A stretch of 64,000 bases of DNA, from IMG/VR virus record IMGVR_UViG_3300028591_000072, positions 64,001-128,000 of that record; one strand, given 5' to 3'. Shown here in pieces: positions 923 through 60,413 of the stretch. The position numbers were made by a program, and so were the translations under genes. The stretch is from a virus. Lineage: Duplodnaviria > Caudoviricetes. The notes below the pieces were generated by a model, which searched no databases, was not told where the DNA came from, and saw only the letters and a list, made by a program, of their open reading frames with translations. How positions within the stretch are numbered: position 1 is the stretch's first letter; each line of letters begins with the position of its first letter.

Positions 923-1568
923 GGTAATTATATAATTGTTGGCACAAGATTATAAATCTTCTCCATTAGCTTTGTTTATTTCATTATCATAATATATTGT
1001 GAGATAATATTTACCATAATATTCCGCTATTCTAAACCAAACAGTGTTATCCTCTATCATACCATCAGATACTATCTGATAAAAATACGCATCATAAAGC
1101 TTATTATGACAAGTCATTTCATATGAAATATCTTCGTTTAGTGATATTTTTTCACCTCCAATAAGAACATACTTTTTATTATTATAAAATTGGCTAAACC
1201 ATGTGTTAAATTCTAGAATAATACTTGATTCATCATGTGTCTTTGTTTCGGCTAAATAAATTCTATACACTTTTTTATGATTTGTACATACGAATAAGTG
1301 AACAGAAGCACCATTAAATGTACCCTTTAAAATTGGTAATTGTTTACCTTCCATTTCAAATTTTTCAGTCATTTCTTGGAATCCCTTATTCTTTAATTTC
1401 TGTATCATTTCAGATGCAGTCCCGTCAACAGGAATACCCATAAAGTTCACTTGTGCATCAACTGTTAATGATGCTACAGCTAAAAACAGTATAAATAAAA
1501 TTTTCTTCATAATTTATTATAATTTAAATAGTTATTATTCATTTTGTACCATCATGTACATAGTTCCA
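923..1568. mobile_element. Non-autonomous IS1595-derived cassette carrying one passenger gene
   Basis: Left IR ggtaattatataattgttggcacaa (923-947); right IR tttgtaccatcatgtacatagttcc (1543-1567); 8-bp direct repeat TTTTTATA at 915-922 and 1569-1576; IRs match the ends of the transposase-bearing element at 35340-37499. Confidence 0.8.
950..1510 (-). CDS. Secreted protein with signal peptide, Bacteroidota/Prevotella-like (cassette passenger)
   Basis: Signal peptide MKKILFILFLAVASLTVDAQ followed by FMGIPVDGT..KLKNKGF, a pattern I associate with Prevotella hypothetical proteins. Confidence 0.7.
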   Translation of the reverse strand: MKKILFILFLAVASLTVDAQVNFMGIPVDGTASEMIQKLKNKGFQEMTEKFEMEGKQLPILKGTFNGASVHLFVCTNHKKVYRIYLAETKTHDESSIILEFNTWFSQFYNNKKYVLIGGEKISLNEDISYEMTCHNKLYDAYFYQIVSDGMIEDNTVWFRIAEYYGKYYLTIYYDNEINKANGEDL

Positions 1569-7577: not shown

Positions 7578-7856
7578 ATGGAAACTTACAAAATAAATCA
7601 CGAATTAAACCAATATGATTACGCTGAAGGAATAGAATTCAATGGATTAATGCCTAAATTAATGGAAGCAGACGGAGTTGACACAACAGGAACAAGCGAC
7701 ACAAATGTTAAATTCTTCGGATTTAACGCAAAAGGAAGCGATTCATTAGAAGTTGTTGACATTGATGCATTGAATGAAAAGGAAAGCGGAAGTGAAAGCA
7801 ATGGCGGAAACGAAGACAATGGCGATGAAAATGGCGATGAAAATGGCGGTAAATAA
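7578..7856 (+). CDS. Short paralogue of the N-terminal domain of the next gene
   Basis: NHELNQY..EGIEF.GLMPK.M.A.G...GSDSLEVVDID shared with 7962..9575; 12-bp aatggcgatgaa repeats at the 3' end. Confidence 0.8.
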   Translation: METYKINHELNQYDYAEGIEFNGLMPKLMEADGVDTTGTSDTNVKFFGFNAKGSDSLEVVDIDALNEKESGSESNGGNEDNGDENGDENGGK

Positions 7857-7859
7857 TAT

Positions 7860-7885
7860 GGTAACTATATACATGATGGCACAAA
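7860..7885 (+). repeat. Solo IS1595-type terminal inverted repeat overlapping a terminator
   Basis: ggtaactatatacatgatggcacaaa, running into aaagcacac-ttgaaaag-gtgtgcttttttt. Confidence 0.75.
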
Positions 7886-7961
7886 GCACACTTGAAAAGG
7901 TGTGCTTTTTTTGCTTCCGTTAACTATTTATAAAAAAAATAAAATACTAAAAATCACGAAA

Positions 7962-9575
7962 ATGGATAACTATATTGTGAATCACGAACTAAACCAATAC
8001 GGCCAAATAGAAGGAATAGAATTCGATGGACTTATGCCAAAATTTATGGATGCCATTGGAGCAACAACAGGAAGTAGTGACAAATATAAGAAAATGTTTG
8101 AATTTTATCCAAACGGTTCAGATTCTTTAGAGGTCGTTGACATTGATAAAATAATGGAGAACGGCAATAGCAGTGATTCTGGTGATGATAGCGGTGAAGA
8201 AACCGTTATAGTAAAACCAGAACCAACTGAAAACACTGAAGAACAACAAGCAATAGAAAACGAGATTTCAAATGCGCTAACTAGTGAAGACGGAGGAACA
8301 AAAGCATATAGTGCTGTATATGATGAAGTTAATAACTTAACAATCCCATCAGATTCATTGCGTAGTGCAACTATAAGCGGAAATGTACAAAATGGGGCAA
8401 CAATTACAAACGAATCAACAGGAAAATACTTAACTTTAAATAACACAAGTGAAACTCCAACAGATGTAAATGTAATCACAAATGGCGGTGCTGTATATTT
8501 AAGAGGTGAATATGATGACATTTACTTGGAAGGAAATGGGCTTAAAGTTTCAAGTTCAATTTATCCAAATGTACACGGAACTGTTTCTGTTGCCGATACA
8601 GACCAACCAGTTGCATTAACACTTAATTTCGTTGGAGATGACTGTGGCGTAAATTATTTAGGTGAAAACGAACTTACAATAAGTGACGGTGTTGCTGATG
8701 TCCTTGGAAGCCCAACAATATATGCACCAAATTCAAGCGTAAAAATGGGAGGAAAATATGATGAAGTTACCGCAACTGTCAGTGAAAACACTCTCATATT
8801 AAACAATGGTTTCCACGCAAACAAACTTACTGTTTTGAAAGGAAATGTTCTTCTTAATGGTGTTGACATAAATGACTTTGTTGAAGAATTAATTATGCAC
8901 GATGGCAGTGAGGTTATATATGCAGAATATCATGTATCACAAAGTAGCAATTCAAAACTTATGGGTTCATCACCAGCAAATGGAAAAATAATTCTTGACA
9001 CAGACATTGAATTAACTAAAGGACGTGCATATTCAGTACTTGCCGGCGGAAAAGAAGTCGTTGACCTTAACGGTCACACTTGGAGATGCGGAGATACAAG
9101 AACAGCTGATTCAAACCTTGGCTCATATTATCTCAGGGGTGGCAACATAAACGTAACATTGATGGATTCTGTTGGAGGCGGAGTTTTTGAAAATAACCAT
9201 GCAGATTACCTTGTTTTCTCAAATGGTGCTAACGTTGTTGTAAACGTAATGTCAGGAGAATATCGTGGATATACGCACACACTTTATGCATTGCAAGGAA
9301 CTATTAATGTTTATGGTGGAACTTTCAAACTCCTTAACGCTGACACAGCAGAAAGAGATGCTAATGGAAATCTCAAGTTCTTACTAAACTGTTATGATGC
9401 AAATTATACAGCAGGTACTGCAAAGATAAATGTATATGGCGGTAAGTTCTATGAATTCAACCCTGCTGTTACTTATGGAGAGCCGGGTGGCCCTGTAAGT
9501 TATGTAGCACAAGGCTATAAAGTTATCGAAAGCACAGAAAACGGAGTTAAGGTATACGAAGTTGTACCTGAATAA
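7962..9575 (+). CDS. Late protein, probable virion surface protein with beta-helix-like C-terminal region
   Basis: Late motif at 7923; N/G/T/V-rich with GxINVYGGxF repeats; start moved to ATG 7962. Confidence 0.55.
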   Translation: MDNYIVNHELNQYGQIEGIEFDGLMPKFMDAIGATTGSSDKYKKMFEFYPNGSDSLEVVDIDKIMENGNSSDSGDDSGEETVIVKPEPTENTEEQQAIENEISNALTSEDGGTKAYSAVYDEVNNLTIPSDSLRSATISGNVQNGATITNESTGKYLTLNNTSETPTDVNVITNGGAVYLRGEYDDIYLEGNGLKVSSSIYPNVHGTVSVADTDQPVALTLNFVGDDCGVNYLGENELTISDGVADVLGSPTIYAPNSSVKMGGKYDEVTATVSENTLILNNGFHANKLTVLKGNVLLNGVDINDFVEELIMHDGSEVIYAEYHVSQSSNSKLMGSSPANGKIILDTDIELTKGRAYSVLAGGKEVVDLNGHTWRCGDTRTADSNLGSYYLRGGNINVTLMDSVGGGVFENNHADYLVFSNGANVVVNVMSGEYRGYTHTLYALQGTINVYGGTFKLLNADTAERDANGNLKFLLNCYDANYTAGTAKINVYGGKFYEFNPAVTYGEPGGPVSYVAQGYKVIESTENGVKVYEVVPE

Positions 9576-15515: not shown

Positions 15516-17339
15516 ATGGAAAAAGGTAATTTAGTTGAAATTAAAAGAGGACAAACAGGCACTGGCCTTTTAATAGAAAATGACGGATATATTTCACCTG
15601 AAATCGGTGGAAACAAAAAACTTTTCGAAGACATAAACAACGGAAACATTAGTGATGATTTTCATTGCCCATATCCGTTTATTGTTTCTGCTGTTTTCCA
15701 AAAGTTCGGCATTGAAAACGCAAATGGAAGAATATATCCTGAAGAAATATTGAAGCGTGAAGTGCAAAAATATATGGAAAAAATTGCGGAAAAAAGAGCA
15801 ATAGGAGAATGCTATAGGCCAGAGGCAATGATTCTAACTGAAAAAGGGTGGAAACATTTATATGAAGTTTCAGAAGGGGAAAATGTATTAACATTAAATA
15901 CATTAACAAATGAAATTGAAATAAAACCAATAAAATCAATAACAAAATACAAATACAATGGAAATTTGATAAACATAAAAGGAAGACAAATCAATGACAT
16001 TGTAACACCTGACCACGGTTTTCCATTATATGATAGAAATAATAAATTTAAGAAGTTTGTAACAGCAAAAGAAATATCAGACTTTGACAATTTATCACAT
16101 TATTATATCCCAAAAACAGGAAATTGGATTGGAAGAAATGATGAATATATGATAATACCAAAAATAAATGAAAGCGAATTAGGTAAAAATATTCGTCACG
16201 ACTTAAAAGATAAATATACAACTGATTTAATTATACCAATGAACATCTTTGCAAAATTCATGGGTATATATCTTTCAGAGGGCTCACATTCAAAAAAAGA
16301 AAGTAAATCAAATAAAATTAACATTCACCAAAAAAAAGAAGAAATTTGTGAAGAAATACAAAAAATGCTTGAAGAATGGGGGATTAACTTTACAATTAAC
16401 ACTTCAAAAAAATCAGGATGTAAAACATTTGTTATAAATGACATGAGACTGTGCAAATACGTACAGCAATTTGGATTGTGCTATGACAAATTTGTCCCAT
16501 TTGAATTAAAACAGCAAAACAAGGAAATACTTAAAACTTTTTATGAATGGTTTGTTATGGGAGATGGCAGAATAAGGGGTGATAAACGAAGAAAAGACAT
16601 AAATTTATCAGATGATGTTTTTTCTACATCAAAACAATTGGCTATGGATTTAAACGAAATACAACTAAAAATTGGTTATTCAGGAACATTTTCAATTGAA
16701 AAAAGAAACAATGACAGAATAATAGAAGAAAACAGGGTTATTAAAGGTGAAAATTCGCACGAAATGTATTTCAGTTATAGGTCTTTGGTTAAAGGAATAT
16801 ATATAGATAAAAGATTCCTATCAACAAGCGAAATAGATTATGACGGAGATGTTATGTGTGTTGAAGTTGATAATCATGTTTGGTATGTAATGGATAATAA
16901 TAGATGCCATTGGACAAAAAACTGTAATCACCCAAGCGAATCTGTTATTGACCTTTCAAGAGTTGCCATAAACATAGTTGAATTACATTGGGAAGGGCAT
17001 ACTTTGGTTGGAAAACTTGAAATTATAACAAGTCCTGGTTTCAGAAAACATGGCATAATTTCTTGTCAAGGTGACCAAGTTGCCAATTTGATATTACAAG
17101 GTATTAAAATAGGTGTTTCATCAAGAGGTCTTGGTACTGTAACAAATAAAATGGGCACTTTATACGTTTCTGACGACTATGAGTGCCTATGTTGGGATGT
17201 GGTTAGTGACCCTAGTACCCCAGATGCTTGGATTACGCCTGAAGGCCAAATTCCGCAGCAATATATTGAAAGTAAAAAAGCCGAAAAAAACACAATTTTT
17301 GAAGAATTAGGTAAATTTTCGGATTGGCTAAATGAATAA
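15516..17339 (+). CDS. Prohead protease (T4 gp21-like) containing an intein
   Basis: NANGRIYP, GE|..|CNHP, IGVSSRGLG, DVVSDPSTPDA. Confidence 0.9.
   Translation: MEKGNLVEIKRGQTGTGLLIENDGYISPEIGGNKKLFEDINNGNISDDFHCPYPFIVSAVFQKFGIENANGRIYPEEILKREVQKYMEKIAEKRAIGECYRPEAMILTEKGWKHLYEVSEGENVLTLNTLTNEIEIKPIKSITKYKYNGNLINIKGRQINDIVTPDHGFPLYDRNNKFKKFVTAKEISDFDNLSHYYIPKTGNWIGRNDEYMIIPKINESELGKNIRHDLKDKYTTDLIIPMNIFAKFMGIYLSEGSHSKKESKSNKINIHQKKEEICEEIQKMLEEWGINFTINTSKKSGCKTFVINDMRLCKYVQQFGLCYDKFVPFELKQQNKEILKTFYEWFVMGDGRIRGDKRRKDINLSDDVFSTSKQLAMDLNEIQLKIGYSGTFSIEKRNNDRIIEENRVIKGENSHEMYFSYRSLVKGIYIDKRFLSTSEIDYDGDVMCVEVDNHVWYVMDNNRCHWTKNCNHPSESVIDLSRVAINIVELHWEGHTLVGKLEIITSPGFRKHGIISCQGDQVANLILQGIKIGVSSRGLGTVTNKMGTLYVSDDYECLCWDVVSDPSTPDAWITPEGQIPQQYIESKKAEKNTIFEELGKFSDWLNE
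15810..16922 (+). mobile_element. 371-aa intein with LAGLIDADG endonuclease in the prohead protease
   Basis: CYRPEAMILTEKGW start, VTPDH block B, FMGIYLSEGS / FVMGDGR, ends WTKN|C. Confidence 0.9.
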
Positions 17340-32362: not shown

Positions 32363-33298
32363 ATGGGAAAAAGAAAAACAACGGAAGAATTTATAGAAGA
32401 AGCCAGAAAAATTCATGGTGAAAAATTTGATTATTCAAAAGTTAATTATGTTAATAACAAAACAAAAGTTTGTATAATTTACAATAACATTGAATATTTT
32501 ATTACACCAAAAGACCATTTAAAAGGTGAAGGATGTCCTTATTTGTCAAATAAACTAAGAAATAGCAAAAACACAAAAACGACTTCTGAATTTATAGAAA
32601 AATCAATAAAAATACACGGAAATAAATATGATTATTCCGAATCTATATATGTTAATCATTTAACGCCATTAAAAATTATTTGCAAAAAGCACGGAAAATT
32701 CACACAAAAACCATCTGACCATTTAAGTGGGTGTGGATGCCCAATTTGTTGTGGAAGTTCCAAACTAACGACAAGTGAGTTTATTGAAAGAGCAAAGATA
32801 GTACATGAAAATAAAAATTTTGATTATTCTAAAGTTGAATATGTGAACAGTAACACAAAGGTTTGTATAATATGCCCTGAGCATGGCGAATTTTGGCAAA
32901 CTCCACATGATTTTATTAGGGGTGTTATTGGATGTAAAAAATGCAACGAAAAAAAGTTAGAAAAAGATATAGAATTTGAATTGCAAAATAATGATATTAA
33001 ATATGAAAGAGAAAAACATTTTAAATGGCTTGGAAAGAAAAGTTTAGATTTTTATTTGCCAGATTATAATATTGCTATCGAATGCCAAGGAGTACAGCAT
33101 TTTGAGCCTGTTGAATTTTTTGGTGGAGAAGAATCCTTTAAAAAACAGATTAAAAATGATTTTGAAAAATACAAGATTTGTGAAACACATAATATTAAAA
33201 TAATATATTACTCATCCATTATAAAAGAGCAAAAAGAATATTTTCGGCCATTAATAAATAATAAAAACGAAATTATTGAACTAATAAAAAAAATATGA
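32363..33298 (+). CDS. Free-standing endonuclease, same family as 28321..29298
   Basis: FDYSKVEY..ICPEHGEF repeats; DFYLPDYNIAIECQGVQHF. Confidence 0.8.
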   Translation: MGKRKTTEEFIEEARKIHGEKFDYSKVNYVNNKTKVCIIYNNIEYFITPKDHLKGEGCPYLSNKLRNSKNTKTTSEFIEKSIKIHGNKYDYSESIYVNHLTPLKIICKKHGKFTQKPSDHLSGCGCPICCGSSKLTTSEFIERAKIVHENKNFDYSKVEYVNSNTKVCIICPEHGEFWQTPHDFIRGVIGCKKCNEKKLEKDIEFELQNNDIKYEREKHFKWLGKKSLDFYLPDYNIAIECQGVQHFEPVEFFGGEESFKKQIKNDFEKYKICETHNIKIIYYSSIIKEQKEYFRPLINNKNEIIELIKKI

Positions 33299-34458: not shown

Positions 34459-35385
34459 ATGAAATTAGATTTTAATGACATAAAATATTTGGTTAACGAA
34501 TGTGTTAAGAAAATCATATCTGAAAGAATTAGCGATAAAACATATCATTTTACGTCTTTTTCTTCTTGCATAAATATTCTTAAAAACAATGAGTTTAAAT
34601 TGACATTATCTTCAAATTCATCAGATGCGTATGACAATAAACGCTTATTCTATTTATCAACACAACGAGGTAGAAGCAAAGACATTGGATATGCAGGACA
34701 TTTGGGAAGTTGTATACGAATTGAAATAAATGGCAACGAAATATCACAAAAATATAATGGTAAGCCTATAGATTATTGGGGAACGATGGGAAAACAAGCA
34801 TATTACAAGCCAGAAAACGATTCAACATTTGGAAAAGGATTTACAAAGTCAAAAAAAACGCACCATAATTTCGAAATGGAAGACAGGATTTTCTCATATA
34901 CTCCAACAATTGAAAACGCATCTAAATATATTTCAAGAATTGATGTTTATTTGAGCGGACAAAGAAAAGATTTAGCCGAGAAAGAAAAAGATGATGCAAT
35001 TACAATTTTAGTACTATCAAAAAGAAATTCAATACCAGTTTTTGTATACACTGACATCAAAGATTTTAATTTTATGACAGATAATACCATAAATTCAGAA
35101 CTTGAGCAACTTTATAAAAATGATTTTCAAAGCAAGACAGAAGTTGGATTCGAAGATTATGATAGAATTAAAATATGGAGAGAAATGAAAAAAAAAGGAA
35201 CATTTGTTAATATCTTAGAACAATTGATGAATGTTTATACATTAGGTAAAATATACACCAAAAATAATGAAATATATAAAACGGTTTCATCACTATTTAA
35301 ACAATTTGGATTAGAAAAATATAAAAATGATTTAATTAAGGGAACTATATACCTGATGGCACAAAGTCAGTCTGATAAAGGCTGA
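34459..35385 (+). CDS. Leader-bearing protein with ADP-ribosyltransferase-like motifs; C-terminus replaced by IS end sequence
   Basis: LVNECVKKIISE leader; YHFT..YLSTQR..EMEDRI; last 14 codons read through the IS IR and terminator. Confidence 0.45.
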   Translation: MKLDFNDIKYLVNECVKKIISERISDKTYHFTSFSSCINILKNNEFKLTLSSNSSDAYDNKRLFYLSTQRGRSKDIGYAGHLGSCIRIEINGNEISQKYNGKPIDYWGTMGKQAYYKPENDSTFGKGFTKSKKTHHNFEMEDRIFSYTPTIENASKYISRIDVYLSGQRKDLAEKEKDDAITILVLSKRNSIPVFVYTDIKDFNFMTDNTINSELEQLYKNDFQSKTEVGFEDYDRIKIWREMKKKGTFVNILEQLMNVYTLGKIYTKNNEIYKTVSSLFKQFGLEKYKNDLIKGTIYLMAQSQSDKG

Positions 35386-35392
35386 CTTTTTT
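35364..35392. terminator. Terminator of the AAGTCAG family just inside the IS left end
   Basis: aagtcagtc-tgataaa-ggctgactt plus T-run. Confidence 0.75.
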
Positions 35393-35393
35393 G

Positions 35394-35777
35394 CTACGAA
35401 GCAAACTTTATCCCATTACCTTGTGAGAAATTGTAAAATGCTTCAATAAAGTAATCATAATCTTCTTCGGAAATGTTATTGGTTTCTTTAAGCATATTCA
35501 GCACCTCTACATCACCTATTTTTGTTACATCACCTATTGTTATAAATCCTCCAATTGCTGCAAAAGACAAAACCACAGACATCTTTTTTCTGTATGAAAT
35601 CGTATTATCTGTAATAAAGTCTGTAATATTCCACCATTTAGATGGCTTGCTGTTATTATCTTTTGCAATGATTATAGCATTTTTTGCAAAATGTTCCATC
35701 ACTTCAATTAAAAGGTTGCTTTCGCAATAAGTCGTTAGTTCATGTGCTGAACTTGGTGTAATGTATAGTATATCCAT
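35394..35777 (-). CDS. Hypothetical passenger protein
   Basis: ATG start at 35777 downstream of TATCTTTGCA; the only TAG stop I noticed among real genes. Confidence 0.65.
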   Translation of the reverse strand: MDILYITPSSAHELTTYCESNLLIEVMEHFAKNAIIIAKDNNSKPSKWWNITDFITDNTISYRKKMSVVLSFAAIGGFITIGDVTKIGDVEVLNMLKETNNISEEDYDYFIEAFYNFSQGNGIKFAS

Positions 35778-35790
35778 ATCAACTTTTTCT

Positions 35791-35800
35791 TGCAAAGATA
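35791..35800 (-). promoter_or_regulatory. Bacteroidota sigma70 -7 element (TAnnTTTG)
   Basis: TATCTTTGCA, back to back with a late motif on the + strand. Confidence 0.6.
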
Positions 35801-35825
35801 CTATTTATTTGAAAAATAGATATAA

Positions 35826-36110
35826 ATGAAGAAAGAATTTGAAGATATTATCAAGGAAAGTGTTAGAAGCGTTCTTTACGAAATGGATATTGTTCCTACA
35901 AACAAACATGGAGAAACAAATCTTGTAAAAAAGCAATCAATTAATGCATGGATAATGATATATCGCTTAATGGATAATATAAAAGTTGTAATGGATAATC
36001 AATATAAGTCAAAGAACGGTAACATTACAAACAAAGATGTAGATGGAATTATAGACTATTTATACAACAGTCTTCAAAATGTAACAAAGAACACGATTGG
36101 AGAAAAATAA
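35826..36110 (+). CDS. Passenger protein with shared leader
   Basis: MKKEFEDIIKESVRSVLYE; late motif at 35800. Confidence 0.7.
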   Translation: MKKEFEDIIKESVRSVLYEMDIVPTNKHGETNLVKKQSINAWIMIYRLMDNIKVVMDNQYKSKNGNITNKDVDGIIDYLYNSLQNVTKNTIGEK

Positions 36111-36135
36111 CCAAGAAATAAAAGAGAATAGAAAT

Positions 36136-36441
36136 ATGAACAAGAAACAAAGAATTAGAATAAACGAGAACCAATTAAGGCAAATCGTTAGCGAATCCGT
36201 GAAAAGAATTTTAAGAGAAAACGATGATTTCACACCACATGGATATATGACGAAATCAAATCTTGGAGGAACCGAAGTACAAATTAGCAATGATGGTTCT
36301 GCGGCAAGATTTAGAAACAATTACGGAACGCCAGACAAACCGACTGATTGGCTCGAAATTGAATTTGACGAAGAAGGCGTTGCTTATGTTACTTTACCAA
36401 ATGGTAGCCAAGAAAGGTTAGACAATTATATGAGATATTAA
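36136..36441 (+). CDS. Passenger protein with shared leader
   Basis: MNKKQRIRINENQLRQIVSESVKRILRE; start moved to ATG 36136. Confidence 0.75.
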   Translation: MNKKQRIRINENQLRQIVSESVKRILRENDDFTPHGYMTKSNLGGTEVQISNDGSAARFRNNYGTPDKPTDWLEIEFDEEGVAYVTLPNGSQERLDNYMRY

Positions 36442-37373
36442 GCAGTACACTTAACAACTTTCACATCCTCGAATGTAACGACATTCAAGGCGTGTTCCAT
36501 AAGGGCAGCGAACCTTTCGCCGCCCTTCTTTTTTCTATTGTTGTAGCGAAAAACCGCCTCGTCAATGTAACGCTGGATATAGTAGCGTGAAACAAAGTGG
36601 TATGTGCCATAAACCATACGCTTGAATTGTCCCCAAAAGCCCTCAATCGTGTTGGTGTACTTGCGTCCCACGGCAAACTCCTTTTGGCTGTGGTTGACAA
36701 TCTCCCTGACATACCCGTTGTCATTCAGGTTGCAGTAAATGTTGGTTTCGTCAGTATAAACCACCGAACCAACCTTAATATGGCTCTTGATAATAGGCAT
36801 AAGCGTTGCGCTCCTTGTATCCTCAACCTTGATGGCAAACACATTGCCTTCCCTTTGTGCCATACCGAATACGGGTGTCTTTGTCTTGGTGCTTCTGCCT
36901 TGCGTACCCTCAACCTTCTTGCTTTCGTGCTTGTTGGTTTCCCTACCACCAACATAGGTTTCGTCAATCTCAACCTCGTCCTCAAGGATTGGTGCTGATT
37001 GGGTAAAGGTGGTGCGAATCTTGTGGAGCATAAACCAAGCGGTTTTTTGTGTCACACCCAAGTCAATGGCTGCTTGCTTGGATGAAACGCCCTTGGAGTG
37101 GGTTGACATAAGGAAAATGGCTCCAAACCACTTGTATAGGGGTAATTTGGTGTCTTGGAAGATGGTTTCCTGAAGGATTGAGAATGATGAGCCACACTCA
37201 CGGCACTTGAAGCGTCCGTCACCACGGCGATATGGGTGCATGCCACCGCAATACGGGCAAGCAACAAGTCCGTCAGGGTAGATTTGTTCCTCAATGAACT
37301 TTAGGCAGGTGGCTTTGTCCCGGAAATGGCGGAAGATTTGAGGAAGGGAGTTGAAATGGGCAAGGTTAATCAT
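36438..37373 (-). CDS. IS1595-family (ISXO2-like) DDE transposase
   Basis: CPYC..CREC Zn ribbon, HTH (KTAWFMLHKIR), EIDETYVGG, YTDE, TNTIEGFW, FRYN; GC clearly higher than the flanks. Confidence 0.95.
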   Translation of the reverse strand: MINLAHFNSLPQIFRHFRDKATCLKFIEEQIYPDGLVACPYCGGMHPYRRGDGRFKCRECGSSFSILQETIFQDTKLPLYKWFGAIFLMSTHSKGVSSKQAAIDLGVTQKTAWFMLHKIRTTFTQSAPILEDEVEIDETYVGGRETNKHESKKVEGTQGRSTKTKTPVFGMAQREGNVFAIKVEDTRSATLMPIIKSHIKVGSVVYTDETNIYCNLNDNGYVREIVNHSQKEFAVGRKYTNTIEGFWGQFKRMVYGTYHFVSRYYIQRYIDEAVFRYNNRKKKGGERFAALMEHALNVVTFEDVKVVKCTA

Positions 37374-37603
37374 AGCAATTCAGGTTGGTTACACTTATTT
37401 ATAGTGTAGAATATACAATTTTTCAACCTGAAAAACCAGTTTTTTAACTGAAAATCAGAAATTTCTTCCTAATTTTGTGCCATCATGTACATAGTTCCCA
37501 AAAATTTAAGACGTGACAAAGCTTCGCAACGATAAGCGTTTAGAATGCTGAAATTAAGTGGCTTGTTTTTCTTTTTTATTCTAAATAATTTCATAATTCA
37601 ATT

Positions 37604-37822
37604 TTAATTTGTTGAGCAAGTTACAACCCAATCACCATAATTTGGCGGCATTGGATAAGTTCTTGTTGGCTTAAAAATGTTTGGCTCTAACTGGTCATAA
37701 TAAGGAAATGTTTGTTGTTTCTTATCGTTTAAATCACTAAAATCTTTCATTGCAAGCATTTCTGCAAGTGTTCTTTTGTCACATTGCATGTATCTTTCTA
37801 CTTTTTCTTCAAATGTTTCCAT
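37604..37822 (-). CDS. Hypothetical protein
   Basis: 72-aa ORF with upstream TTGACT / TGTATATT motif. Confidence 0.6.
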   Translation of the reverse strand: METFEEKVERYMQCDKRTLAEMLAMKDFSDLNDKKQQTFPYYDQLEPNIFKPTRTYPMPPNYGDWVVTCSTN

Positions 37823-37947: not shown

Positions 37948-40900
37948 ATGGCAAATAACAATCAAACTATATTTCAAAGATTAACTGATGTATTTAGGGG
38001 TTCAAATAGCAATTCAGTTCCTAAAGCAGTACAAACGTCAAAAAGTTTTGATGAAAGGAACGAAGTGCTTTTTTCGACAAATGACAGGGCTGAATATGAA
38101 AGAAAATTAGAAACATTTAAACAGCAAAAATATTTAGCATATCAATGGAAAAGGGCAGGCGCTGACAATTCCATGGAAAGTTTGGCCGGATATAATGCCG
38201 TTAAATTAATGTATCGTGACGTTGACCTTATGGATGGGACTTGTGAAATTGGAAGTGCTCTTGATATTATATCAGAAGAGGCTTGTTTGGATGGTGATAC
38301 ACAAATAAAATTATTAAACGGAAAAGTTTTTACAATCAAAGAATTGTATAATATGCGTTGTAAAGATTTTTGGGTTTATTCTGTTGACGAAAATGGAATT
38401 TGTATGCCATCGCACGTTGATAGTGTTATTTATAAGGGTAAAAAAAACATTATAGAAATAACGCTTGACGATGATACTGTGATAAAAATTACGCCAGACC
38501 ATAAATTAATGTTGTCAAATTGTGAATGGAAAGAGGCATCTGATTTGGTTGAAGGTGATTCTTTAATGTCAATATATGACTCAAAGGATAATTTAGGATA
38601 TGAACAAATCATATCTTCTACCGAGTATAAAAAAAGGCCAACACATCGTGTTGTTGCTGAAAACGTTTTAATTGATGAAAAAACGATTTTATTGGAAAAA
38701 AACACAAATAACCAAAAAATAGTTATTCATCATAACACATTTAATAAATCGAACAATGACCCATCTGCATTGACATATATGTATTGGGATGAACATCAAA
38801 AATTACACACAGATTTAAATAAAAAAAGATGGGAAAATAAAGAATGGGCTGATAAGATGAAAAAAATATTTTCAAAAACAGCCAAAAAAACATGGAAAGA
38901 ACAAAGAAATAATTTCATAGAAAAATTTAAAATCGCTCAAAAAAAACGTATTGAAAAAATGAGCGAAGAAGAACGTATTAAATATTTCGGGAGAAAAGGG
39001 AAAAATAATGGTATGTTTGGTATACATAGATATGGCAAAAGCAATCCAAACTATAATAAAACAGTAAGCAGAATAAATAATATAAATGAAAAAGAATACA
39101 TTGATACAATTTTAAATAACGGTGGAAGGAAAGAATTAAAAAATAAGTTTAATTTGACAAAAAATGACGTTATTGAATATAATAGGTATTTATGTAAAAA
39201 ATACAAAATAAATAATATTTTTAATTTAAAATTTAACGATGAAATCTTTACGAAAATTAAAGAAATGATTATAAATAACCCATCTTTAACTCTATCTGAA
39301 ATTTCAAAAAATATTAACATATCAAAAAACACAATTAGCACAATATTAAAAAAACACGATACATCATTTAAAGATATACAAATAAAAAGTGACGTTTGGA
39401 AATATTATAAAGTTGACGAAAAAGAATATATTAATACGATTGCTTATTTAGACACTTATAATTTTAATGAAAAGTTATCAAATAAATTTAATTTAACAAA
39501 AAAACAGATTTCAAGGTTAAATAAAGAAATATTAAAAAAATACGATTTAAAAAGAATTGACCATTTAAAATATGTATTTAACGAAAATTATAAAATTTCA
39601 AAAATTAAGAAACTTATTTCCTATGGAAAAAATAAAAGTGAAATCTTAAAAGAATTATCATTATCAAATTTTCATCTTTTACAAATATGTAAAGAGAACG
39701 GATATAAAGATTATCAAGATTTAAAAAAATCATTATATAACCACAGAATTAAATCAATAAGAAAAATAGAAGAAGAAAGCGATGTATTTGATTTATTGAA
39801 TTCATCAACAAACAATTGTTTTGCAATAAAATGTAACAATGGACATATAATATCGCATAATTGCCCAATTAATTCTGAAGGATTAATGATTAACATATAT
39901 TCAAAGTCAAAAAGAACAAAGTCAATACTAGAAGATTTATTTGTAAACAGGTTACACATTTATACTGAGTTACCAATGATTGCCCGTCACGTAACAAAAT
40001 ACGGAAATACATTTATGCTTTTGAATATAGACAAGTCAAATGGCGTAATGGGGTGGATGATGATGCCTGTTTATGAGGTTGATAGGGAAGAAAACGGATA
40101 TGGGTCAACATACACACAAACAGTTCCACGTCAAACAACTGACATAAAACCTGACGAAATAAGGTTTGTATGGAAAGGGCACAACGGAGATAATGCTTAT
40201 TTCAATTGGCAAGTGGCACATTTTAGATTGCTAAACGATTCGTTTTTCCTACCTTATGGCGTATCAATGCTTCATAAAGCACGTAGAGCGTGGAGAATGT
40301 GGTCAATGATGGAAGATGCAATGCTTATTTGGAGATTAGATAAGGCAATTGAAAGACGTGTTTATAAAGTATATGTTGGCGCAATTGACGATGCTGACGT
40401 TCCTGCATACATAAACGAAATTGCAAATAATTTTAAAAGAACACAAATAATAGACCCAGTTACGGGTCAGGTTGATTTAAGAAAAAACTTTTTAGACGTT
40501 TCAAGCGACTATTTCATTCCTGTAAGAAGAGAGGATGCCCCAAATCCAATTGAAACATTACAGGCGGCAAACAGCCAAGTTCAAATGGAGGACATTGAAT
40601 ACATGCAAAATAAAATTTTTGCAGCAATGAGAGTTCCAAAAACTTTTTTAAATTTCCAAGAAGCGCAAGGTAAAGGCCAGAATCTTTCATTTATGGATGT
40701 CAGGTTTGCAAGAATGATTGTAAGAATACAACAATTTTTGTTAATGGAACTTAACAAAATAGCAATGATACATCTATACTTAATGGGGCTTTCAGATGAA
40801 ATAGGAAACTTTTCATTAACTCTAAACAGCCCATCAACAGTAATAGAAGGACAAGAACTTGAAGATTTACAAAAACGTCTAACAGCAATGCAAACAGCGC

Positions 40901-41637
40901 TTGCTGACCCAGGAACCGGTATTCCAATGATGTCAATGCATAGAGCACTTAAAAAGATAATGAAAATGAGTGACGAAGAAATAAGGGACATGTTCAATGA
41001 AATCCGTTTGGAAAAAGCAATGGCTGCTGAATTAGCTGCAACGCCTAACATAATAAAACATTCAGGAATGTTTGACGTAACAGATAGAATATATGGGGAC
41101 TATGCGGCAATGCATGGAGGTGGAACGCAGCAACAACAAGATAGCGAAAATGACGGAATGGGCGGCGGAGGAGGTGGCCCAATTGGCGGTGGTTTAGGCG
41201 GCGGAGATTTTGACATTGGAGAACCAGGTTCTGATACAGAAGGTGAACTTGGAGGCGAAGAAGGAGAAACCGACATGGAAAGTGCGCCAAATGCCGACAA
41301 CGGAACGCCATTAAATGAGCAAAAATTAAATACGACAAAATCATTTACAAAAAAATATTTTGAAAACATTAACGAAAACAAGTCACAATTAAAAAAAGCG
41401 CCAACTTCTTATTTTGACTTATATATGAATCTAATATCAGAAAGTCAAAAAGAAGAAGATGAAGTTGATGATGTTATTGATTACGACATTAAAAATAAAA
41501 CTTTACAAGAAAACATTAAAAGCATTTGCGATAAAATAGATTCTCTTATTGATGAGGATGAAATAGCACGTGAAAATTTAATAAATGAGGCCATATCCGA
41601 TTTAAATACGATTTCAGGTGAAACACTTAATGAATAA
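37948..41637 (+). CDS. Portal protein (T4 gp20-like) containing an intein
   Basis: EIGSALDIISEEA|..|CP, PYGVSML, MMEDAMLIWR, ERRVYKV, DYFIPVR, EDIEY..AMRVPK. Confidence 0.9.
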   Translation: MANNNQTIFQRLTDVFRGSNSNSVPKAVQTSKSFDERNEVLFSTNDRAEYERKLETFKQQKYLAYQWKRAGADNSMESLAGYNAVKLMYRDVDLMDGTCEIGSALDIISEEACLDGDTQIKLLNGKVFTIKELYNMRCKDFWVYSVDENGICMPSHVDSVIYKGKKNIIEITLDDDTVIKITPDHKLMLSNCEWKEASDLVEGDSLMSIYDSKDNLGYEQIISSTEYKKRPTHRVVAENVLIDEKTILLEKNTNNQKIVIHHNTFNKSNNDPSALTYMYWDEHQKLHTDLNKKRWENKEWADKMKKIFSKTAKKTWKEQRNNFIEKFKIAQKKRIEKMSEEERIKYFGRKGKNNGMFGIHRYGKSNPNYNKTVSRINNINEKEYIDTILNNGGRKELKNKFNLTKNDVIEYNRYLCKKYKINNIFNLKFNDEIFTKIKEMIINNPSLTLSEISKNINISKNTISTILKKHDTSFKDIQIKSDVWKYYKVDEKEYINTIAYLDTYNFNEKLSNKFNLTKKQISRLNKEILKKYDLKRIDHLKYVFNENYKISKIKKLISYGKNKSEILKELSLSNFHLLQICKENGYKDYQDLKKSLYNHRIKSIRKIEEESDVFDLLNSSTNNCFAIKCNNGHIISHNCPINSEGLMINIYSKSKRTKSILEDLFVNRLHIYTELPMIARHVTKYGNTFMLLNIDKSNGVMGWMMMPVYEVDREENGYGSTYTQTVPRQTTDIKPDEIRFVWKGHNGDNAYFNWQVAHFRLLNDSFFLPYGVSMLHKARRAWRMWSMMEDAMLIWRLDKAIERRVYKVYVGAIDDADVPAYINEIANNFKRTQIIDPVTGQVDLRKNFLDVSSDYFIPVRREDAPNPIETLQAANSQVQMEDIEYMQNKIFAAMRVPKTFLNFQEAQGKGQNLSFMDVRFARMIVRIQQFLLMELNKIAMIHLYLMGLSDEIGNFSLTLNSPSTVIEGQELEDLQKRLTAMQTALADPGTGIPMMSMHRALKKIMKMSDEEIRDMFNEIRLEKAMAAELAATPNIIKHSGMFDVTDRIYGDYAAMHGGGTQQQQDSENDGMGGGGGGPIGGGLGGGDFDIGEPGSDTEGELGGEEGETDMESAPNADNGTPLNEQKLNTTKSFTKKYFENINENKSQLKKAPTSYFDLYMNLISESQKEEDEVDDVIDYDIKNKTLQENIKSICDKIDSLIDEDEIARENLINEAISDLNTISGETLNE
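38284..39861 (+). mobile_element. 526-aa intein with HNH endonuclease, NUMOD3-like and HTH repeats in the portal
   Basis: CLDGDTQIKLL, ITPDH, THRVVAE..IHH..NKSNND, GKNNGMFG, VFDL..IISHN|C. Confidence 0.9.
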
Positions 41638-60359: not shown

Positions 60360-60379
60360 AAAACTAAAAACATTAAAAT

Positions 60380-60413
60380 AAAAAAGTCAGCCTTATTTAG
60401 ACTGACTTTTTTT
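60380..60413. terminator. Bidirectional terminator of the AAGTCAG family
   Basis: aaaaaagtcag-ccttatttaga-ctgactttttt. Confidence 0.8.

Follow-up and report, generated by a model that had tools for sequence, protein, structure and literature searches.

Organisation of the element

We analysed a stretch of 64,000 nucleotides (hereafter the window), which corresponds to bases 64001-128000 of the IMG/VR record IMGVR_UViG_3300028591_000072 (302,581 bp, GC content 0.32, completeness estimate 82%). The source genome is that of a T4-like jumbo phage of Bacteroidales from the rumen or gut, and the region of interest, 35340-37499, is located within its T4-like head module, with the portal gene downstream and the prohead protease gene ~19 kb upstream. 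IS1595-family insertion sequences (IS) with passenger genes are known as ‘tIS’ in ISfinder and TnPedia; the region is probably one copy of such a cargo-carrying transposon of the IS1595 group. From left to right it consists of a terminal inverted repeat, a terminator hairpin, three passenger genes (P1, P2 and P3), a convergent transposase gene and a second repeat. The coordinates are given in Table 1; positions are those of the window unless the genome is named. A preliminary description of the sequence had stated that the sole inverted repeat pair around the transposase encloses three passengers, and that the stop codon of the transposase overlaps that of the last passenger. Both statements hold: the repeat arms (31 nt, 87% complementary) form the longest inverted repeat between 34.5 and 38.5 kb and have the three open reading frames (ORFs) inside, and the stop codons of P3 and the transposase overlap as TTAA (36438-36441). 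The GC content is a mosaic: 0.47 in the transposase vs 0.28-0.36 in the passengers.

The transposase contains an N-terminal zinc ribbon and an ISXO2-like DDE domain. It matches PF12762 (3e-44, 152/153 positions) and PF12760 (8e-9) of Pfam, and NF033547 of NCBIfam (9e-60, 202 bits vs a cut-off of 75). The residues D137, D208, N241, K251, E272 and R276 are invariant across nine transposases of 41-97% identity; we take them to be the DDNK plus ER catalytic signature of IS1595 in the description of ISfinder. Concerning the other hallmarks of the family, the terminal inverted repeats are present, with a 26-nt core common to members from Bacteroidota to Streptococcus, and the 8-bp target duplication is absent from the focal copy and present in nine sister elements. 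The transposase and its repeats are bona fide IS1595. Among 50,697 GenBank phage records, no DNA similar to the element was found, and a search with the transposase protein gave distant matches only.

The 26-nt core (GGGAACTATATACCTGATGGCACAAA) agrees at 26/26 and 24/26 positions with the ends of IS1595 elements that have target duplications elsewhere, and the focal repeat is therefore not a chance one. The 55-nt left end, which includes the hairpin, recurs in L136/L102, L093 and L142 as well as in bacterial contigs of higher GC content. More distant members, from Saprospiraceae to Streptococcus, have the terminal GGGAACTATATAC in common and are often several kb long; the outer end of the focal repeat (35340-35352), which has this sequence, also resembles the late-type motif of the phage (AACTATTTATA). 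A search beside the transposase stop for a second repeat, which would make a minimal IS, was negative. No alternative right end for the left repeat was found, allowing 10 mismatches in 26. Further IS1595-type ends are found in the phage genome at genome 38708, at window 7860, at window 923 and 1568 (a pair) and, as a weak copy, near window 26764; with the same tolerance, no degenerate partner was found for the solo ends at genome 38708 and window 7860 (genome 71860). Hairpins of the GTCAG..CTGAC type are also present, as ordinary terminators, beside leader genes without any repeat (window 60375-60413, genome ~132330 and L090 9212-9241); they may be terminators of the phage that the element has picked up, or remains of elements that have decayed.

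Table 1. Features of the focal element and of related units. Positions refer to the window; for units found elsewhere the length is given.
Feature	Position or length	Strand	Description
p308, native part	34459..35339	+	Leader-tagged gene upstream of the element; 293 codons (homologues 377 aa)
Left terminal inverted repeat	35340..35370	+	26-nt core 35340-35365; 26/26 to ends of L006, L090, L101, L142
Hairpin GTCAG..CTGAC and T-run	35366..35392	+	Terminator-like, part of the element end, immediately inside the left repeat
P1	35394..35777	-	ORF, 127 aa from ATG, no leader; 37 homologue clusters, many in bacterial contigs beside IS1595 transposases
Phage motif ACTATTTATT	35800..35809	+	26 nt before P2 ATG
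P2	35826..36110	+	94 aa; leader-like N-terminus ending VLYE; 55-60% identical homologues in bacterial elements
Phage motif ACTATTTATA	36055..36064	+	Inside the 3' end of P2, 81 nt before P3 ATG
P3 upstream-plus-leader module	36104..36206	+	91% DNA identity to genome 39487-39589
P3	36136..36441	+	101 aa; full leader ending RILRE (leader HMM); stop overlaps transposase stop
Transposase	36438..37373	-	IS1595 group, 311 aa, intact (Pfam, NCBIfam)
Right terminal inverted repeat	37469..37499	+	Transposase-proximal side
Cassette in the same window	923..1568		646 bp; perfect duplication TTTTTATA; no transposase, one 186-aa signal-peptide gene
L101/L121	1485 bp		Perfect duplication AAAAATTT; transposase and 110-aa leader gene
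L136	1707 bp		Perfect duplication TTTTTTTA; transposase and 119-aa leader gene
L117	1430 bp		Perfect duplication; transposase and 97-aa leader gene
L123	2867 bp		Perfect duplication; transposase and 567-aa gene without leader
L109	1011 bp		Perfect duplication; no transposase, one 296-aa leader gene
L103	566 bp		Duplication 7/8; no transposase, one 117-aa leader gene
L092-type cassette (four contigs)	2045 bp		Perfect duplication; no transposase, three genes, one leader-tagged
L006 (bacterial)	2801 bp		Perfect 8-bp duplication CATATTTA; transposase and two other passenger genes
L147 (bacterial)	2447 bp		Identical 26-nt repeats, perfect duplication TAATTTTA; P2-P1 pair inside

P1 and P2 form a conserved divergent pair. 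The sequence TATCTTTG (35793-35800, - strand) precedes P1 and lies in a block, TGCAAAGATA, which is invariant across six homologous loci; we take it to fit the -7 promoter form of Bacteroidota, TAnnTTTG, and the earlier suggestion that one passenger has a Bacteroidota promoter is thus plausible. The predicted fold of P1 is confident (predicted local distance difference test score 92.7), but neither Foldseek in PDB nor a wide search with VIA-align (best Z 4.6) gave a convincing match, and matches in the ESM Atlas stayed below a template modelling score of 0.4. Relatives of P1 in IMG/VR were not found by pattern search; a protein search did recover them. A 375-aa phage protein (genome 274135-275262) has a paralogue of the P3 body as its C-terminal domain, and a homologue of P3 with 59% identity is found in a 393-kb phage, ~650 bp from a solo IS1595-type end. 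The close copy of the upstream and leader part of P3 at genome 39487-39589 heads an unrelated body and is located ~800 bp from the solo repeat at genome 38708. This solo left-type end (L003, genome 38700-39600, outside the window) is 95% identical to the focal one over 44 nt. The gene after it joins, in one reading frame, a homologue of the opening gene of the 2045-bp cassette and a leader-bearing part, whose upstream region and leader are those with 91% DNA identity to P3.

Sister elements in phages

IMG/VR and the JGI metagenomes were scanned for the 26-nt repeat, which gave 48 loci. Complete units with perfect 8-bp duplications were found in low-GC, phage-like contigs. In related phage contigs the transposase copies are 94-98% identical in DNA, and each encloses a different gene tagged with the leader, a common N-terminal sequence. 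In L101, L136 and L117 the leader gene is convergent to the transposase; in L136 the two stops also overlap as in the focal element, and the 55-nt left end with its hairpin is shared. The cargo proteins are alike only in their first ~30 residues and are unrelated beyond. The preliminary description had proposed to look for an enrichment of the leader among passengers, and the enrichment is strong: the leader is present in 6/10 cargo genes of phage-borne elements vs ~11/328 phage genes (Fisher p ~1e-6). The sister copies transpose as whole units, cargo included, as their perfect 8-bp duplications show. The family has both autonomous and transposase-less members, in several phages and in Bacteroidales chromosomes. 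Among the transposase-less ones, the cassette at 923-1568 contains an ORF (950-1510, - strand) with a signal-peptide-like N-terminus and no leader, which has no match in Pfam, PADLOC or NCBIfam.

Insertions are mostly found in A or T runs beside terminator hairpins; in L090 a cassette is inserted in the T-run of a hairpin of the GTCAG..CTGAC type. As expected of a multi-copy repeat, several contigs begin or end inside the element (L089, L096, L102 and L091 break within the IS). Concerning the relatedness of the copies, this phage and contig G003 share the transposase at 94% DNA identity, whereas their tail sheath and tube genes are only ~83% identical, which indicates horizontal spread.

Copies in bacterial chromosomes

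The nearest bacterial relative is L006, in a metagenome-assembled genome of Bacteroidales, whose transposase is 91% identical in protein and which has the same 26-nt ends; its homology to the window is limited to 36463-37503, that is, to the transposase and the right end. The other half of the element has its counterparts at different places. The window segment 35331-36044 (repeat, hairpin, P1 and P2) has 86% DNA identity to L142/L143, and P1 (86-89% identical), the same hairpin and a perfect 26/26 repeat are present in L142/L143 and in L150, at two different bacterial sites. L142 retains the phage motif upstream of P2. The gene order IS1595 transposase, convergent P2 homologue (94 aa), P1 homologue is found in L140/L141, beside the genes for threonyl-tRNA synthetase and DNA ligase, and in L147-L149, in a defence-island-like setting; these transposases are only 47-51% identical to the focal one. 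In L144, L145 and L146 a variable gene with a strong leader (MNKKLIRLTEQDLHRIVKESV..) comes after the P2 homologue, and the leader profile matches nothing else in those contigs. This is the slot held by P3 in the focal element, and the position of P3 is the variable leader-gene slot. The GC content of the cargo block is ~0.32 even where the bacterial flanks have 0.43-0.49; this value is phage-like, while that of the transposase is bacterial.

The distal half of the focal element (repeat, hairpin, P1 and P2) and its proximal half (transposase and repeat) both have close counterparts in mobile units elsewhere. As in a tIS, passengers are found together with the repeats at separate sites: the P1-P2 block at two bacterial sites and in L147, and leader genes in L101, L136 and L117.

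Late motif and shared leader

The motif ACTATTTATW occurs in 16 copies in the window vs 0.99 expected. Two passengers had been described as lying downstream of this late motif and as carrying a shared leader, and both observations were confirmed: a copy of the motif precedes P2 and another precedes P3, and the leader is detected in P3 by hidden Markov model (HMM; 1.5e-24) and in P2, where it has a shorter form (..DIIKESVRSVLYE), clearly by alignment. The same leader heads ~11 other, otherwise unrelated phage genes, and its conservation reaches upstream of the ATG at the DNA level. The leaders end in ILRE, VLYE or IISE, i.e. (I/L)xE. In T4, the gp21 protease cleaves after (L/I)xE. The leader is N-terminal on unrelated proteins and ends in this form, and the phage encodes a T4-type portal (PF07230) and a gp21-type protease (PF03420); on these grounds it is a probable T4-style capsid-targeting peptide, putatively cut by the gp21-type protease after (I/L)xE.

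The solo end at window 7860-7885 borders directly on a different terminator hairpin (GCACAC..GTGTGC), with a late motif further on at 7923, and no partner repeat for this end was found within 8 kb. The ORFs on its two sides, one of 92 aa (7578-7856) and one of 537 aa (7962-9575), have ~35 N-terminal residues in common.

Head-gene locus and synteny

The portal gene (37948-41637) is of the gp20 type (PF07230, 1e-64) and is split by an intein of ~520 aa (PF14890, residues 122-638); the portal of the relatives has 691 aa and is intein-free. The prohead protease gene (15516-17339) is of the gp21 type (PF03420, 79 bits) and is also split by an intein, which has a LAGLIDADG endonuclease domain. In the relatives L086, L087 and L088 (50-68% protein identity) the order is p382, p308 (377 aa) and portal, and in L087 the gap between p308 and the portal is just 52 nt. 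Transposase, repeat and passengers are absent between the p308 homologue and the portal in all three; one of these relatives is a complete genome (G001, 363 kb), which contains no transposase, repeat or P1-P2 anywhere. Since the relatives run p308 straight into the portal, the passengers are not resident at this locus. The preliminary description had allowed that the passengers might be syntenic in relatives lacking the IS; this is not so, and the relatives are without passengers and element alike.

In the focal copy, the 3' end of p308 overlaps the left repeat, from which the gene takes its last 15 codons and its stop. The lost C-terminus of p308 (~70 residues) was sought throughout the phage genome and was not found. 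The segment 37500-37583 was considered as a decayed remainder of p308, an idea that found no support. The focal copy has therefore been rearranged, as both the absence of a target duplication and the truncation of the upstream gene indicate.

Other features of the neighbourhood are an HNH-type homing endonuclease gene (32363-33298, 311 aa; phrog_559, 1e-63) inserted ahead of the p382 gene, and a 72-aa ORF (37604-37822, - strand) between the right repeat and the portal, which has no family match and is missing from the syntenic locus of the relatives. The HNH endonuclease has many paralogous copies in this phage and its relatives, whose repeats cross-match genome-wide; in the relatives, a remnant of 63 aa is left where p382 and p308 adjoin. 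A 41-aa ORF (37469-37594, - strand) runs into the right repeat and is probably spurious. Outside the window, a 394-aa ORF (genome 55534-56718) with an N-terminus resembling TnpB or IS605 OrfB-type proteins, a putative assignment, adjoins leader-bearing genes at genome 52508 and 54654.

Evaluation of the alternatives

Several observations weigh against reading the region as a tIS with capsid-loaded cargo. An 8-bp target duplication is missing from the focal copy, whose flanks read TTAATTAA (left) and AAAAATTT (right), and this copy may therefore not have arrived as one unit. The contig was assembled from a metagenome, and the element exists in multiple copies, inside which several contigs break, so its interior could be mis-joined. 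No empty site was found for any sister element: exact probes for the sites of L136 and of the L092-type cassette had no match in IMG/VR, and the homologous regions of this phage are too diverged to align at those insertion points. P1-P3 have no match in Pfam, PHROGs, PADLOC or NCBIfam and no assignable function; the leader of P2 is weak by HMM (0.14); and the leader-tagged genes in bacterial chromosomes fit less simply with a purely phage capsid signal. The missing duplication concerns the history of the focal copy and not the family of its parts, because nine sister elements have duplications. It is also what would be expected if the left repeat were the solo end of an independent insertion and P1-P3 were resident phage genes caught between two insertions, and the other solo ends in this phage (genome 38708, window 7860) and the phage-like GC content of the passengers agree with this. 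We consider such an origin very improbable and already largely refuted: at two bacterial sites the repeat-hairpin-P1-P2 block recurs at 86% DNA identity with a perfect repeat beside it, L147 with its flanking duplication contains the P2-P1 pair, duplication-flanked sister elements in phages have the same layout of transposase and convergent leader gene, and the relatives have neither passengers nor IS at the locus. Less improbable, but still unlikely, is that the focal copy of a real element is an immobile rearranged relic, or that its interior is an assembly chimera of co-occurring variants, in which case 35340-37499 would not be a unit that is mobile at present. The absent duplication and the truncation of p308, whose remainder is absent from the genome, are compatible with this, as are the contigs that end inside the IS (L089, L096, L102 and L091), which show repeat-induced assembly problems, and the ~1 kb of transposase and 55-nt end which the variants have in common. 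However, the transposase is complete and has every conserved residue, both repeats agree with the consensus at 24-26 of 26 positions, both flanks are syntenic with the relatives, and the perfect-duplication cassette in the same genome argues for recent activity.

Concerning the leader, the presence of leader genes in bacterial chromosomes would allow another role: it could be a conserved translational or regulatory 5' module, or an N-terminal helix with a different task (e.g. binding a transposon or host factor), and the cargo would then be accessory or addiction genes of the transposon instead of head proteins. The occurrence of the P2-P1 pair and of leader genes in bacterial chromosomes beside transposases only 47-51% identical to the focal one, and the conservation upstream of the ATG, speak for it; however, the leader heads ~11 otherwise unrelated phage genes and has the (I/L)xE ending in a phage with a T4 gp20 portal and gp21-type protease, the cargo of the bacterial copies has a GC content of 0.32 vs 0.43-0.49, and L142 retains the phage motif before P2. 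We regard a role outside the capsid as rather unlikely, if worth serious attention. The preferred reading thus remains that of a tIS copy with probable capsid-targeted cargo. The preliminary description had presented a phage-adapted transposon that moves ready-to-package head cargo. Of this, the movement of cargo with the ends stands (duplication-flanked sisters, L147); adaptation to phages is qualified by the copies in Bacteroidales chromosomes, packaging is something we infer, and the focal copy itself is without duplication.

The following course of events is proposed. The cargo slot beside the transposase would turn over, probably via recombination in the promoter-leader module of ~100 nt, which is ~90% identical among unrelated genes. 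An adjacent deletion mediated by the IS, or recombination of two copies close to each other, has probably cost the focal copy its duplication and p308 its 3' end. The transposon would in this way spread ready-to-load head proteins, from which the leader would be removed by the gp21-type protease. A bolder idea, which we think doubtful, is that the family forms a two-way shuttle between jumbo phages and Bacteroidales for capsid-loaded effectors, in which the chromosomal copies would be silent until infection, then be read from the late-type motif, with their products loaded into progeny heads. If so, the copies would form a reservoir of injected counter-defence proteins which the phage re-acquires through transposition; they could equally be host-encoded ‘Trojan’ cargo that sabotages virions, and the cassettes may have seeded much of the leader-tagged repertoire of the phage.

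Comparison with known systems

In the genomes of lytic phages, insertion sequences are regarded as uncommon and transient. The family described here, with autonomous and non-autonomous copies and clean duplications, is found across several jumbo phages and their hosts, and it prefers small genes with the promoter-leader module. The injected, packaged proteins of T4 include anti-restriction proteins. If the leader is a capsid-loading tag, phages could exchange, by way of the transposon, proteins that are loaded into the head and injected together with the DNA, and this would explain one leader on unrelated proteins. With the 26-nt repeat as a probe, more cargo of this kind could be collected from metagenomes, and the leader is a candidate packaging tag for Bacteroidales phages. 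IS1595 elements with passengers and transposase-less IS cassettes are already known; our literature searches gave no description of IS1595 elements in phages nor of this leader, and residence in lytic jumbo phages with leader-tagged cargo is unreported in the literature searched.

The likeness to the tIS of the IS1595 family lies in the transposase (PF12760/PF12762, NF033547; the D, D, N, K and E..R residues), in the GG(G/T)AAC start of the repeats, in the 8-bp duplications of the sisters and in the size of the units (1.4-2.9 kb), in which additional genes separate the transposase from the distal end. Unlike them, the family lives and appears to spread in lytic T4-like jumbo phages, its cargo has a phage-like GC content, a late-type motif and a common N-terminal leader, the cargo slot differs among copies with 94-98% identical transposases, and the focal copy is without duplication. 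The transposase-less units (window 923-1568, the L092 type, L109 and L103) resemble the mobile insertion cassettes (MICs), e.g. MIC231 of the Bacillus cereus group, which is mobilised in trans by IS231: they too have IS-type repeats, duplications and one or few passengers. They differ from MICs in that their ends are of the IS1595 type rather than of the IS4 family, they are located in phage genomes and their cargo consists mostly of leader-tagged late genes.

T4-type phages reportedly have hypervariable internal-protein loci and mobile regulatory cassettes, and in the elements described here a conserved promoter-leader DNA module on unrelated bodies likewise suggests modular shuffling. The internal proteins and Alt of T4 have a capsid-targeting sequence which is cleaved by gp21. 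The passengers agree with them in the short N-terminal leader, its (L/I)xE end and the unrelated bodies, and a gp20-type portal and gp21-type protease are encoded in this phage as well. Unlike the 10-aa T4 signal, the putative signal described here has ~25-30 aa and is unrelated in sequence; also unlike T4, the modules are moved by a DDE transposon too and are found in host chromosomes.

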